64,000 nucleotides of DNA from positions 1,584,064 through 1,648,063 of the forward strand of contig OY970155.1 in the NCBI GenBank assembly GCA_963706205.1, written 5' to 3'. Below the pieces are notes generated by a model that saw only the letters and a program-made list of their open reading frames with translations, had not been told where the DNA came from and did not search any database. Each line of letters begins with the position of its first letter. Positions within the stretch are counted from its first letter, which is position 1. This stretch comes from an uncultured Acidimicrobiaceae bacterium (GTDB lineage: Bacteria > Actinomycetota > Acidimicrobiia > Acidimicrobiales > UBA8190). Positions 10,240-15,789 of this stretch are shown here, piece by piece. Both the position numbers and the translations under genes were made by a program.

Positions 10240-10797
10240 TCAGTCCCACAGCCCGGCGGGGGAGTCTCCCAATCGGTAATGGCCGGGGAGCAACTCACCG
10301 GCTCCGGCGCGTTCGATCCGCCGCTTCATCCCCTCCGAGAGGGCGTCCGCCTTGATCATCTCGATGAACAGCGACGTGGCGTTGCCGACGTCGAAGAAGT
10401 CACGCTGCCATGACCACTGCCAGTCTCCCGGCGTAGCGGAACCAGCTGCCACCGAGCCCGGCGATCTCGTAGCGGCGTCCCGTCGGGTCGCGTGGCGTCG
10501 GCGATCTGCTTCCACAGGCCGATGACCTCGCCCTGGACGGGGTCGATGAGCACCTTCTGGTACGGATAGGTCCAGCCGTCCAGCCCGCCCATCTCGCAGG
10601 CCGAGGGCGATGTCGCGGATCTCGTCGCGTCCGACGGCCATGAACTCCTCGTGCGGACCGATGTTCCAGCCGTAGGTGGCGTCCTCGGTGTACATGTCGG
10701 CCATCGGCCGCCAGTCACCGGCGTCCTGGGCGCGCCGGTTGGCCTCCAGCCACCGCTCCACCATCTCTTCCAGCTCCTCGTAGGGAAAAGGCGGCAC
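10240..10797 (-). pseudogene. NTF2/SnoaL-like protein (Rv0762c-like position), broken by three +1 frameshifts as sequenced
   Basis: The peptide hops from ORF 10240..10797 to 10356..10718, through a third frame, and back: ...GRDEIRDIALGL | EMGGLDGWTYPYQKVLIDPVQGEVIGLWKQIADATRPDGT | RYEIAGLGGSWFRYAG | DWQWSWQRDFFDVGNATSLF... Extra bases lie near 10596, 10475 and 10426. Confidence 0.6.
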
Positions 10798-10800
10798 GTC

Positions 10801-10996
10801 TCAGTCCTCCTCGATTCGTCAACGCTTTGGTGGGGCAGAACCTCACAGCCTGTTCGACCATCGGCCGCATCACTTCGGCCGGGCTCTCGTCGACGACGGT
10901 GAGGACGCCTTTCTTCGACACCGAGAAGACATCAGGCGCCTCGGACTCACAGACCCCGTGTCCCTGGCACAGGTCCCTGTCGACCACGATCCTCAC
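10801..10996 (-). pseudogene. small [3Fe-4S]/[4Fe-4S]-type ferredoxin (Rv0763c-like); separate GTG-started gene or C-terminal domain of CYP51; one +1 frameshift near its 3' end
   Basis: VRIVVDRDLCQGHGVCESEAPDVFSVSKKGVLTVVDESPAEVMRPMVEQAVRFCPTKALT in ORF 10715..11503. Removing one base near 10815 gives ...ALTIEED-stop at 10801, just before the next gene's GTG (10797). Confidence 0.65.
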
Positions 10997-13227: not shown

Positions 13228-14443
13228 TCAGAGCGCCGACACCGTGGTCGGGAGGGCGGCGAAGCCCCGCACGTTGATGGAGTGGACCCGCTCGGCCCCC
13301 GCCGGCGTCGATGTCGTAGTCGACCGACCCGGTGCACGAGCTCCTCGAGACCGACGCGGGCCTCGAGCCGGGCCAGGGCGGCGCCCAGGCAGAAATGGCG
13401 TCCGCTGCCGAAGCTGATGAGCTTCGAGGTGTCGCGGTCGAGGTCGTAGCGATCGGGTCGGGGAAGACGCCGCGAGTCCCGGTTGGCCGACCCGACGAGC
13501 AGCAGGACCCGTCGCCCGTCGGGTAGGACGGTCCCCCGCAGGTCGACGTCGCCCGTGGTCACCCGCAGCAGCATCTGCGTCGACGTGTCGAAGCGCAGGG
13601 TCTCCTCCACCCAGTCGGGGACCCGGCCCGGGTCGGCGAAGGCCTTGGCCCGCTCGTCGGGGAAGCGCCACGCCCAGTACCAGGCGTTGGCCGAGCAGCT
13701 TGGTGGTCGTCTCGTTGCCGGCCACGACCATGAGGAAGAGGAAGGAGATGATCTCGTCGTCGGTCGAGCCGGTCCCCGTCCGAGATCGGCGTCGAGCAGC
13801 GCCGAGGTCAGGTCGTCGGTCGGCCGGGCCCGGCGGCGTTCGGTCACCATCTCGCCGAAGTAGCCGGCCAGGGCGAGGGCGGCCTCCATGCCTTCGGCCG
13901 GGATGTCGTCGAGACCCCTCCTCGCGATGCACGAGGAGGTCGGCCAGGCGTCGCACCTCGGCCCGGTCGCTACGGGGAACGCCGATCATCTCGGAGATCA
14001 CGTCCATGGGCAGCAGGCCGGCGAAGTCGGCCACGAAGTCGAAGTCCCGGCGCTCGACGGCGGTGTCGAGGTGCTCGACGGCGAGCTCCCGGATGCCGCC
14101 CTCGAGCTCGGCCACCCGACGAGGGGTGAAGACCTTGGAGACGAGCGAGCGCATCCGCGTGTGGTCGCGGCGGGTCCATGGCGAGGAACGACATGGCCCG
14201 GTGGGCGTCGGGTCCGTAGGCGGCGGGATCGAGGGAGACGCCGAACCGGTTCGACAGCTGGGCGGGGTTCGCGGAAGGCGGCGAGGACGTCATCGTGGCG
14301 CGAGAGCGCCCAGAAGTCGAGCTCGTCGTTGCGGTAGAGCGGCGCCTCGGCCCGCAGACGGGCATAGGTCGGGTAGGGGTCCTCGTGCATCTGGTAGTCG
14401 TACGGGCTGTAGCGCAGCGGAGCCACCGGTCGTCCGTCGTCAT
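13228..14443 (-). pseudogene. cytochrome P450, CYP123-like, multiply frameshifted
   Basis: Pieces in ORFs 13998..14684 (PLRYSPYDYQMHEDPYPTYARLRAEAPLYRNDELDFWALSRHDDV), 13970..14902 (LSNRFGVSLDPAAYGPDAHRAMSFLAMD), 13228..14154 (MRSLVSKVFTPRRVAELE..., DDEIISFLFLMVVAGNETTTKLL, AERVHSINVRGFAALP) and 12387..13889 (FGSGRHFCLGAALARLEA haem loop). Start is the ATG at 14443 or the GTG at 14426. Confidence 0.75.
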
Positions 14444-15105
14444 CGGACGCCCTCGAGAAGCGGCCCGGGCCACGTCGGCGAGGGCGTCGGGGACACCCCC
14501 GTACGGCAGGTGCCCCATCCCGGCCCACAGCATCGCACCGGAGTAGGCCAGATCGAGGCCGAGCAGGACGGTGGGATCGGCGTCGGCGCCGAGCGCCGAG
14601 GCGATCCGGGCGTGCAGCTCGGCGCCGAACCGCACTCGCAGAGCCCGCACGTCGGGCCCGCTGCCGAGCAGGGCGGTGGTGCACGCCGCCGCCAGTTTCG
14701 GATCGTCGGCCATGAACAGACCAAGATCCTCGAGCGCGCCGGTCAGTCGATCGGCAACGCGCTCACCCCGGGAAGGTCGGGTGACGGCCGGCAGCGCATC
14801 GAACCGCCGCCACAGGACCTCGGCCAGCAGGTGGTCCTTGGAGGCGAAGTAGGTGTAGGCGGTGGCCGGGGCCACGCCGGCTCGCCGCGCCACGCTGCGC
14901 ACGGTGAGCCCCTCGTATCCACGCTCACGCGCCTCGTCGGCGGCGGCGTCGACCAGCGCTGCACGACACCCGCCTGCTTGATCGTGAGCCGCCGCCGCGT
15001 CGTCTCGGCCGCCTCGGCGGCACCGGTGGCCGCGCCGTCGGACTCGGCGTCCTCGGACTCCGGGCCGTCGAAGTCCTCCCGGTCCATCTGTGCCAGACGG
15101 GTCAT
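14440..15105 (-). pseudogene. TetR-family regulator (Rv0767c-like position), at least one frameshift in the HTH region
   Basis: MTRLAQMDREDF...RRRLTIKQAGVVQ (frame of ORF 14743..15789), then LVDAAADEARERGYEGLTVRSVARRAGVAPATAYTYFASKDHLLAEV (frame of ORF 13970..14902). The 3' end is approximate. Confidence 0.6.
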
Positions 15106-15789
15106 GGTTGGGCGTCCGGCTCGGGGATGTGGGGCGTCCCGTCGCGCATGGCCGGGAACCGGAAGGTGGCCGCGGTCGTGCCGGCGGTGATCCGGGTGAT
15201 GTCGGCCTCGGGCAGCGTCTCGGTGTCGTCGTCGATGACCACCTCCCACCGGCAGTGCGGCGACCGGTCCGAAGGGACCCGCGGAGGACGGTGGACGGGG
15301 CGGATCCGGGCCTTCGGGTTCACCGCCTGGGCGGTGACGTCGAAGGTGCCGTCCTCGATGTGGTGGCACATGCTGGTCACCATGCGTCGCCGCAGGGCTC
15401 GGCGTCCATGAGCGCTCCGCAGTGGGCCAGCTCGAAGTAGCCGTGGTTCTCGTCGACCACCTCGTAGCGGACGTCCATGTAGTGGTGGGGGAAGCCGGGG
15501 TCGAGCTGGAGGACCTTGAAGATGGCCGACGACGCCGTCGCCTTCGATCTCCATGATCTGGCGCAGCCGCTCGCCGTAGACGGGGCTCGCCCCCGCCCAC
15601 TCCTCGATGGCCAGCTCCTTCATCGACGTCGGCCCCGTAGCGCATGCCGATGGCGGCGCACATGGACCGGTCGAGAAGGTGCACGATGAGGGCGTACTCG
15701 CGCACCAGCCGGACGAGGGCCTCCTTGGACAGGTCCTCGTAGCGGAAGTCGGGGTCGAAGGGCCCCGAGTAGTCTTTGCGGTCGGTCAT
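15102..15789 (-). pseudogene. conserved hypothetical protein, first gene of the operon, multiply frameshifted
   Basis: MTDRKDYSGPFDPDFRYEDLSKEALVRLVREYALIVHLLDRSMCAAIGMRYG (ORF 14743..15789) continues as MKELAIEEWAGASPVYGERLRQIMEIEGDGV and ...VTSMCHHIEDGTFDVTAQAVNPKARIRPV...WEVVIDDDTETLPEADITRITAG (ORF 15102..15623). Its stop overlaps the TetR ATG (ATGA). Confidence 0.5.

Follow-up and report, generated by a model that had tools for sequence, protein, structure and literature searches.

Consensus errors of the metaFlye/Medaka type, which affect metagenome-assembled genomes (MAGs) under strain heterogeneity and are recognised as IDEEL-type gene truncation, leave genes that are frameshifted yet conserved, as is also the case in the locus described here. 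The classic nanopore consensus error is the homopolymer deletion. The present locus differs from it in having insertions outside homopolymers, in carrying tandem transversion alleles, and in being confined to islands a few kb long. Serious polishing errors are known to occur when strains co-occur (PMC12424758), and polishers can yield mixtures of haplotypes that damage coding sequence (PMC8092372). A limited search of the literature found no description of a signature in which both alleles are left in tandem.

Clusters of true bacterial pseudogenes are found in Mycobacterium leprae, as a result of reductive decay. Adjacent genes are unreadable in a single frame in both cases, but here stops and large deletions are absent, codon-position bias is not relaxed, insertions take the place of deletions, and the pattern occurs in independent assemblies of one technology only.

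The genes themselves form a CYP51/ferredoxin/SDR/P450/TetR operon of actinobacterial type. Its gene content and order, all on one strand, are like those of the mycobacterial CYP51 cluster, which we take to be Rv0761c-Rv0767c of M. tuberculosis, with genes for a ferredoxin, CYP51, an SDR, CYP123 and a TetR regulator. The operon described here adds SnoaL-like and conserved hypothetical genes, and comes from an uncultured lineage of the Acidimicrobiales.

The window, meaning the whole stretch of DNA that was analysed, comprises 64,000 nucleotides of contig OY970155.1. Its relevant features are collected in Table 1. Events were typed with a custom protein-to-DNA dynamic-programming aligner that allows frameshifts, using the orthologues of locus L025 as reference.

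Table 1 Genes of the operon (island I), its flanks, and the second island, with the frame-breaking events assigned to each
Feature	Coordinates	Strand	Events or state	Basis
Histidine kinase	7963-9372	-	clean flank	Pfam; collinear with short-read orthologues
Response regulator	9391-10158	-	clean flank	Pfam; collinear with short-read orthologues
SnoaL/NTF2-like gene	10240-10800	-	three +1: ~10423, 10475, 10596	frameshift-aware alignment
Ferredoxin, single 4Fe-4S cluster type	10801-10999	-	one +1: ~10819 (AGA/CGA Arg alleles in tandem)	Pfam Fer4_15
CYP51 (sterol 14-demethylase-like P450)	11000-12390	-	ten events; nine +1: ~11036, 11058, 11134, 11354, 11532, 11896, 11909, 12014, 12306; one +2: ~11979	alignments; Pfam p450; database matches
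SDR	12387-13226	-	densest part of island I; 13-14 +1, listed: 12471, 12502, 12521, 12579, 12610, 12644, 12690, 12730, 12758, 12831, 12937, 12968, 12984; one +2: ~13057; DNA alignment adds ~12845, ~12863	Pfam adh_short; protein and DNA alignments
Second P450 (CYP123-like)	13228-14446	-	8-9 +1, listed: 13306, 13319, 13692, 13765, 13778, 13917, 14167, 14270; one +2: ~14430	Pfam p450; protein and DNA alignments
TetR-family regulator (start codon candidates 15087, 15105)	14440-15105	-	+1: 14461; -1: 14954	Pfam TetR_N
Conserved hypothetical gene	15102-15789	-	+1: 15530, 15624; -1: 15384	alignment
NAD-binding 6-phosphogluconate/3-hydroxyisobutyrate dehydrogenase-like gene, divergent	15831-16742	+	intact clean flank	
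Second frameshift island (island II)	~34600-36700	-		HMM segments; three-frame reading; frameshift-aware alignment

Pfam searches of the corrected proteins place the gene families in the expected order on one strand. The order is collinear with that in the syntenic relatives that were examined closely, and all seven genes are found in most of the 80 loci with a long enough contig. An earlier note on this DNA, made from the sequence alone, had described a six-gene operon. The operon and its families are borne out by Pfam, but there are seven open reading frames, the ferredoxin being separate from CYP51. The SnoaL/NTF2-like gene matches SnoaL_4/SnoaL_2, each slightly under the curated cut-off, and a Pfam search of the corrected conserved hypothetical protein gave no family. 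The corrected CYP51 protein is 87% identical to that of L025, and its best database matches, at 88%, are labelled 'sterol 14-demethylase'; the match with the highest score is to a P450 of Mycobacteroides, at 68% identity across 73% of the query. For the second P450, the label CYP123-like is putative.

Between 10243 and 15789 the frameshift-aware alignment identifies 42 frame-breaking events, consisting of 37 of +1 nt, three of +2 nt and two of -1 nt (at 14954 and 15384). In-frame stops are absent throughout the island when it is aligned with the L025 orthologues. Amino-acid identity to L025 is 85–91% in six of the island genes, and 73% in the SDR. A MAFFT DNA alignment of the window with four intact relatives contains 46 window-specific indels within the island whose length is not a multiple of three, of which 44 are insertions of 1–2 nt and two are single-base deletions. 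The indel rate in the island is approximately 0.8%. A GC3 frame plot gives the same picture, the high-GC3 phase jumping every 70–450 nt from about 10420 to 15790 while remaining steady in the neighbouring genes. As a control, nine relatives were first run through the aligner, and in seven of them all seven genes were free of frameshifts; the two with frameshifts, L014 and L009, are both nanopore MAGs from Microflora Danica (MFD).

The earlier note had counted about 30 insertions. The frameshifts are real features of the sequence, but the count is 42–46 and two of them are deletions. Each of the sites that it listed turned up again, at most a few bases away (10596, 10475, 10423, 10819, 11036, 11058, 11134, 11532, 11896/11909 and 13306/13319), and the ambiguous site at about 14955 in the TetR helix-turn-helix, read there as either -1 or +2, resolves as -1. 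Its observation that the conserved stretches hold no premature stops extends to the whole island, and instead of a balanced mix of indels and stops the alignment gives 40 insertions, two deletions and no stops. When the extra bases are removed in silico, as the note had suggested, orthologous ends are regained in six of the seven genes, which finish one to two codons beyond the last residue of the orthologue; the SnoaL/NTF2-like gene terminates at the orthologous stop at 10240-10242. The exception is the 3' end of CYP51 (~11000-11040), where the DNA alignment has two insertions and the protein aligner removed one.

The island has clean flanks. In approximately 4.8 kb of flanking coding sequence there are no frame-breaking events on alignment with intact relatives, and MAFFT finds no window-specific indel of a length other than a multiple of three in the kinase and response regulator (7966-10160) or in 15831-16716. 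The single flanking indel in that alignment is intergenic, at 17671. The GH3 gene is likewise intact (862 aa, with full domain coverage), so that all four flanking genes named as intact in the earlier note are indeed so. Island II covers the 5' part of a GH13 alpha-glucosidase gene and the gene upstream of it. It was aligned with P0142, P0145, P0195 and P0141, and shows hops between frames in +1 contexts of the same kind. The GH13 gene is clean over its 3' 770 nt (33826-34600), and the edge of island II therefore lies in the middle of a gene. The similarity to many relatives stops at about 10236-10244, which is the 3' end of the operon, and because of this a co-assembled variant sharing the operon alone would give the edges of island I. 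The argument of the earlier note, that an artefact would not be expected to respect the edges of the operon, is thus weakened by both observations.

High G+C can be rejected as the driver, because island II has a G+C content of 0.66–0.68, which is lower than that of island I and also lower than the 0.70–0.71 of the event-free GH3 gene.

The extra bases have a distinctive signature. In 21–23 of 40 insertions, either of two adjacent and differing bases can be removed, with both alleles known in relatives, as compared to 23–26% for random insertions into the corrected window (P = 3e-5 to 1e-4). Examples are GTC/GTG giving GTCG at 15624, CCG/CCC giving CCGC at 14167 and 12471, and AGA/CGA giving ACGA at 10819. 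The alleles were taken from three to five relatives, and the polymorphism is thus one between related species, not within a population; with these few relatives, both alleles are seen for only about half of the insertions. Synonymous third-position doublets make up 23 of 37 insertions against a null of 41.5% (P = 0.009), and only 2 of 37 are explicable solely within a homopolymer, against 28% expected (P = 6e-4). The doublets are transversions in 33 of 35 cases, 25 being C/G, compared with 31–36% transitions among natural differences between close relatives. The inserted base is G or C in 34 of 37. Each of the two -1 events lies in a codon that varies at its third position among relatives, and at 14954 it is the variable C/G base itself that is absent. 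By hand count, approximately 31 of 39 insertions adjoin codon position 3 (67% expected), in itself a weak preference. At the level of sites there is a modest enrichment, 65% of event sites being variable between species compared to 50% (P = 0.02); event density in 250-nt windows does not follow between-species variability significantly (rho = 0.24, P = 0.28). The corrected coding sequence still looks to be under purifying selection: 63% of substitutions relative to L025 are at position 3, and codon differences have a nonsynonymous/synonymous ratio of 0.66, compared to 0.43–0.55 in intact relatives.

On the basis of these observations, we propose that the extra bases are a consensus artefact of mixed haplotypes in a long-read metagenome assembly, and not gene decay, and give this reading a probability of roughly 0.8. 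A consensus taken over two haplotypes is indicated because the extra base is preferentially the alternative allele of a neighbouring variable site, homopolymers are rarely extended, nearly all of the doublets are transversions and the deletions fall in codons with a variable third position. The reads under the contig would come, for segments a few kb long, from two closely related variants, which could be strains, or else an operon copy that is duplicated or shared; the second haplotype is something we infer rather than observe. These variants would differ by substitutions to which the error model of the consensus gives a low likelihood, for the most part C/G transversions in the third position of codons. 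The consensus step, presumably of a likelihood type, would then write both bases in succession, generating a +1 event, and occasionally might write neither, generating a -1 event. The outcome would be a run of single-base frameshifts in well-conserved genes. A standard read-to-draft aligner scores an SNP as a mismatch, and a software step that writes both bases is a conjecture. The extra bases are probably absent from the DNA of the organism, whose actual operon is most likely intact and functional.

A long-read metagenome assembly is the most likely source of the window, as it is the source of its closest relatives. The MFD MAGs rest on nanopore reads alone; Flye was used for assembly, in its metagenome mode, followed by one round of Medaka polishing (PMC12313526). 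In 40 MFD loci carrying the operon there are 124 frameshift events in 66,006 codons (77 of +1 and 29 of -1), compared to 9 events in 56,925 codons for the same operon in 40 other MAG loci, which are apparently short-read, having been classed as such by their contig names. This excess in long-read assemblies, and the patchy spread along the contig, are further features shared with the known consensus errors of long-read MAGs. Five or more events are found in 7 of the 40 MFD loci and in none of the 40 others (Fisher P = 0.012). The +1 events in these seven loci have the same character as those in the window, with synonymous third-position doublets in 39 of 64 (P = 1e-3) and homopolymer-only insertions in 5 of 64 (P = 7e-5). 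The insertion bias is stronger in the window (40:2) than in the MFD average (77:29). These figures give the operon no special status as a hot spot, since the proportion of nanopore MAGs affected (7 of 40, or 17.5%) is similar to the fraction of the window that lies in islands (~12%).

The link to long-read technology is fitted equally well by an unpolished or very low-coverage patch derived from one or a few raw reads, for example a hybrid gap fill, in which the events would be ordinary read errors. Patchy events with sharp edges and clean flanks are consistent with such a patch, and an indel rate of about 0.8% is near the raw-read error level. Raw nanopore errors are, however, biased to deletions and homopolymers, the opposite of the 40:2 excess of insertions seen here, and a raw-read patch should also bring in substitutions and stops, none of which are evident. 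Random insertion is rejected by the tandem alleles (P ~3e-5 to 1e-4), by the homopolymers (2/37 against 28%) and by the transitions (2/35). We therefore consider this explanation unlikely. The earlier note had also favoured an artefact, and in this it was probably right, but the error profile of unpolished reads, with an extra base of any identity, does not describe a base that prefers the neighbouring alternative allele and forms transversion doublets.

A systematic base-calling or consensus error, caused by sequence context or by DNA methylation (for example at CGAC/GTCG), would require no polymorphism. CGAC/GTCG spans the inserted base 13 times compared to 4.7 expected, and CGTC/GACG 11 times compared to 3.9, and the preponderance of G and C among the inserted bases is in keeping with such an error. 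On correction for 136 4-mers the motif enrichment is borderline (~0.06), and the motifs are equally common in the event-free flanks. Such an error would leave the discrete islands unexplained, as well as the lower G+C content of island II relative to the clean GH3 gene, and random insertions of G and C alone give 21% of tandem-allele cases, against 52% observed. It is accordingly a very improbable source of the events.

The least probable explanation is that insertion-biased mutation has truly added the bases, inactivating the operon together with part of the GH13 locus in this population. It has in its favour that the pattern is repeated over seven adjacent genes, that the edges of island I are within about 180 nt of the ends of the operon, and that sequence alone cannot prove a base to be absent from DNA. 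Against this, 42 indels have accumulated with no stop, no larger deletion and no change in the purifying pattern of substitution, the insertions copy the alternative alleles of neighbouring sites, and the edge of island II is inside a gene. Several unrelated MAGs from nanopore data also share the signature, and every one of the other MAGs, apparently short-read, lacks it. In neutral decay substitutions far outnumber indels, and there is a bias towards deletions; the earlier note was thus correct that a nearly insertion-only, non-homopolymer and stop-free pattern is not normal pseudogene decay. We know of no mutational process that inserts copies of the alternative alleles of neighbouring sites. 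One route that can be imagined for real insertions is aberrant heteroduplex repair after recombination between diverged alleles of the operon. Were the bases real, an insertion-biased process would have written the alternative allele beside the resident one at dozens of sites over segments a few kb long, silencing a conserved sterol-demethylase operon in a soil member of the Acidimicrobiales, and we regard this as highly improbable.

Programmed ribosomal frameshifting or transcriptional slippage, in which a +1 change is likewise needed, was dropped, there being too many sites (about 42 in 5.5 kb, over seven unrelated genes), a position outside homopolymer runs, no clear recurring motif apart from the borderline CGAC/GTCG excess, and orthologues that read in a single frame.

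When the same population was sought in independent data, the GTDB representative genomes, the JGI contigs and a collection of 5.8 billion proteins yielded no same-species sequence, and exact look-ups of two intact flank proteins returned no record. The closest protein matches are at 88%, both for the corrected CYP51 and for the flank dehydrogenase against JGI metagenome contigs, and the closest loci show 80–85% nucleotide identity. In other species of these samples the operon identity is 75–90%, the representatives being mostly at 75–80%. Reads cross-recruited from such species were considered as a source of the second haplotype and rejected: the 90% identity of L014 to L025 extends along the whole locus and is not confined to the operon. 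The suggestion that the operon is far more conserved than its flanks was also rejected, the difference in identity being slight (0.84–0.91 compared to 0.76–0.88).

An 'inactivated CYP51 cluster' should not be reported for this organism, and the frameshifts carry little biological weight. Automatic annotation would give seven pseudogenes or about 40 fragments, and would thus understate the P450 and sterol-modifying capacity of the organism. The combination of tandem transversion doublets by third codon positions, a lack of homopolymer involvement and of stops, and discrete islands is a signature that needs little reference sequence, and could serve to detect and mend islands of this kind in catalogues of long-read MAGs. 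If the mixed-haplotype reading is true, the islands mark where co-existing strains differ. It is possible, and more likely than real insertions, although we hold this only tentatively, that artefactual bases nonetheless point to segments in which two diverged alleles coexist in the population, for example as recombination imports.

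Across the seven-gene CYP51 operon (island I, 10243-15789, minus strand) the phase with the highest GC3 jumps every 70-450 nt between ~10420 and 15790; in the neighbouring genes it stays constant. A purpose-written protein-to-DNA dynamic-programming aligner that allows frameshifts was run with the seven orthologues of a related locus, L025, as reference. It placed 37 events of +1 nt, three of +2 nt and two of -1 nt in island I and found no in-frame stop in any of the seven genes, six of which are 85-91% identical to L025 in amino-acid sequence, the SDR being 73% identical. The aligner is not over-calling, since it reported zero frameshifts in all seven genes of seven other relatives (L019, L008, L010, L001, L005, L012 and L013). 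As an independent check, a MAFFT DNA alignment of the window with four intact relatives gave 46 window-specific indels in island I of a length that is not a multiple of three (44 insertions of 1-2 nt and two single-base deletions), none in the kinase, response-regulator and divergent dehydrogenase genes, and one intergenic event outside the island, at 17671.

The GC3 phase and both alignments thus bear out the frame-hopping operon described in the earlier note from the sequence alone, and all of its listed insertion sites were recovered. Its count of about 30 events was too low, however (42 by the aligner, 46 by MAFFT), and its six genes are seven ORFs, the ferredoxin being an ORF of its own. 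The pattern that it described as insertion-only holds for the 40 insertions and the lack of stops, but not for the two -1 deletions. The earlier note also suggested deleting the extra bases to test whether the ORFs are restored. Once the inferred ones are taken out, no gene has an internal stop, and six of the seven terminate 1-2 codons beyond the final residue in the L025 alignment; in CYP51 the 3' end is only partly resolved. Pfam confirmed the gene families.

This is almost certainly not gene decay. With 42 neutral indels, far more substitutions and several stops would be expected. Island I has no larger deletions and likewise no stops, and 63% of substitutions relative to L025 fall at codon position 3, compared with 65-70% in intact relatives. 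The ratio of nonsynonymous to synonymous codon differences is 0.66 (0.43-0.55 in intact relatives), an excess that stems partly from residues mistranslated beside frameshift sites.

The extra bases themselves are informative. In 21-23 of the 40 insertions, dropping either of two adjacent unlike bases matches the relatives' alleles equally well, which we call a tandem allele; random bases inserted into the corrected window give 23-26%, and into L019 21-22% (P = 3e-5 to 1e-4). At the protein level, 23/37 insertions are synonymous third-position doublets (41.5% under the null, P = 0.009), and only 2/37 are readable solely as homopolymer extension (28% expected, P = 6e-4). Both deletions hit codons that differ between relatives at the third position, and at 14954 the missing base is the variable C/G base itself. 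The unlike-base doublets are transversions in 33/35 cases and C/G in 25/35, while transitions make up 31-36% of natural differences among close relatives. Taken together, these tests indicate that the consensus holds 'both alleles', and rarely 'neither', at substitution differences that a read-error model deems improbable.

Coordinates of tandem alleles, of island II and of frameshifts in related nanopore loci
Feature	Position	Relatives	Window or content
Tandem allele	15624	GTC or GTG	GTCG
Tandem allele	14167, 12471	CCG or CCC	CCGC
Tandem allele	12579	ACG or ACC	ACCG
Tandem allele	10819	AGA or CGA (both arginine)	ACGA
Island II	within 33826-36700		GH13 5' part (~34600-35130 and further upstream) and upstream gene (35500-36700)
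Frameshifted operon, L014	7380-11693
Frameshifted operon, L029	8154-11985
Frameshifted operons, L040, L052, L053, L058, L077
L025 flank events	13841, 16473, 16899		kinase, aldo-keto reductase, alanine-racemase-like

The best explanation for this feature is a consensus artefact of assembly from mixed haplotypes, to which we give a probability of about 0.8. We propose that a likelihood-type consensus given two haplotypes may prefer to write both bases, so that each read is explained by a cheap deletion error; a single base would instead require a rare transversion error in half of the reads. Transitions would be cheap as substitution errors, and would therefore be collapsed to a single base.

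The aligner was also applied to all 80 loci returned by a CYP51-peptide scan of species-representative genomes (one per species); almost all of these loci belong to MAGs of uncultured Acidimicrobiales. Forty are from Microflora Danica (MFD) MAGs, which are nanopore-only and were built by Flye in its metagenome mode followed by a single round of Medaka polishing (PMC12313526). These gave 124 events in 66,006 aligned codons (77 of +1, 29 of -1), compared with nine in 56,925 codons for the 40 other MAG loci, apparently short-read to judge from their contig names (k141_, NODE_ and similar). At least five events occur in seven nanopore loci and in none of the others (P = 0.012). The +1 events in these seven repeat the signature of island I, being synonymous third-position doublets in 39/64 cases (P = 1e-3) and homopolymer-only in 5/64 (P = 7e-5), and a column-by-column view of L014 shows tandem pairs and deletions at variable third positions. 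Public nanopore MAGs that GTDB uses as species representatives (L014, L029, L040, L052, L053, L058 and L077) have 6-20 frameshifts in the CYP51 operon; flanks are mostly clean in L014 (two flank events), L029 and L058, and L053 hops frame over its whole 20-kb locus. L025, itself from a nanopore MAG, is free of events in its operon and has scattered single +1 events in genes that flank it.

A patch of raw-read errors would account for the patchiness, but is unlikely, because it leaves unexplained both the 40:2 excess of insertions and the tandem-allele, non-homopolymer, transversion signature. Less likely again is a context or methylation effect, hinted at by CGAC/GTCG across the inserted bases (13 vs 4.7 expected; CGTC/GACG, 11 vs 3.9). 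Both enrichments are borderline after multiple-testing correction and could simply follow from C/G doublets ahead of GAC/ACC codons; such an effect could not produce discrete islands, and is not G+C-driven, because G+C is lower in island II than in the clean GH3 gene. That the insertions are physically real is least likely of all, being at odds with every indirect test. An artefact of one kind or another is close to certain.

The earlier note objected that a coverage artefact would not be expected to respect the edges of a transcription unit. This is weakened by the presence in the window of at least one further island, island II. There a GH13 alpha-glucosidase gene (33826-35480) hops frames over its 5' 500-900 nt, as does the gene upstream of it, whose fragments have no Pfam match; the +1/+2 events lie in the same tandem-allele contexts as in island I (tcc[G]cgc, gat[C]cca, gtg[C]agc, gtc[G]aag). 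The 770 nt at the 3' end of the GH13 gene are clean, which puts an island edge within that gene, so that island edges are not generally gene-bound. Many of the closest GH13 homologues (P0125, P0126, P0127, P0137, P0138 and others) are only 260-340 aa long on contigs of 60 kb-2 Mb, against ~550 codons here, and this gene is probably fragmented in a similar way in other long-read MAGs. A crude GC3 hidden Markov model called as 'non-coding' both 12577-13324, where the frameshifts of island I are densest, and 24536-27833, 42483-43630, 47331-49738 and 57312-59173, which may be genes of weak codon bias or further islands; the first of these four is probably at least partly intact, given long ORFs at 24756-26102 and 26662-27717.

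The first event of island I is 180 nt and the last 165 nt in from the operon ends, with a mean spacing of ~130 nt, which fixes the island's edges only to within ~200 nt. The operon 3' end (~10236-10244) is the exact limit of similarity to L005, L006, L009, L004, L020, L049, L106 and L135; on the opposite side similarity ends at ~15012, ~15774 or ~16700, depending on the relative. A co-assembled variant sharing only the conserved operon block would yield these limits. Species representatives from the same samples, at 75-80% identity, are too diverged to have supplied the second haplotype (90% for L014/L025, but over the whole locus). Island I and its flanks differ little in conservation, with the island slightly higher. 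The share of nanopore MAGs affected, 17.5%, is close to the ~12% of the window that lies in islands; we therefore do not claim the operon as a special hot spot.

The window (G+C ~68%) shares gene order over ~2400-18442 with its closest loci in the scan, L014, L025 and L019 (80-84% DNA identity), and its identity to L081, a short-read contig from JGI, is 85.5%. No same-species sequence was found among GTDB representative genomes, JGI contigs and a collection of 5.8 billion proteins. L081 and L083 (both JGI metagenome Ga0209415) begin at the same point, window ~11904 inside CYP51, as would result from an assembly-graph branch where co-occurring strains or species share a segment. A 48-nt in-frame insertion at 15020-15079, rich in acidic and Ser/Gly codons and absent from all relatives, lies where the hypothetical gene meets the TetR N-terminus, and appears to be a true length difference outside the artefact. 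The underlying seven-gene CYP51 operon is of an ordinary actinobacterial type and is probably intact.
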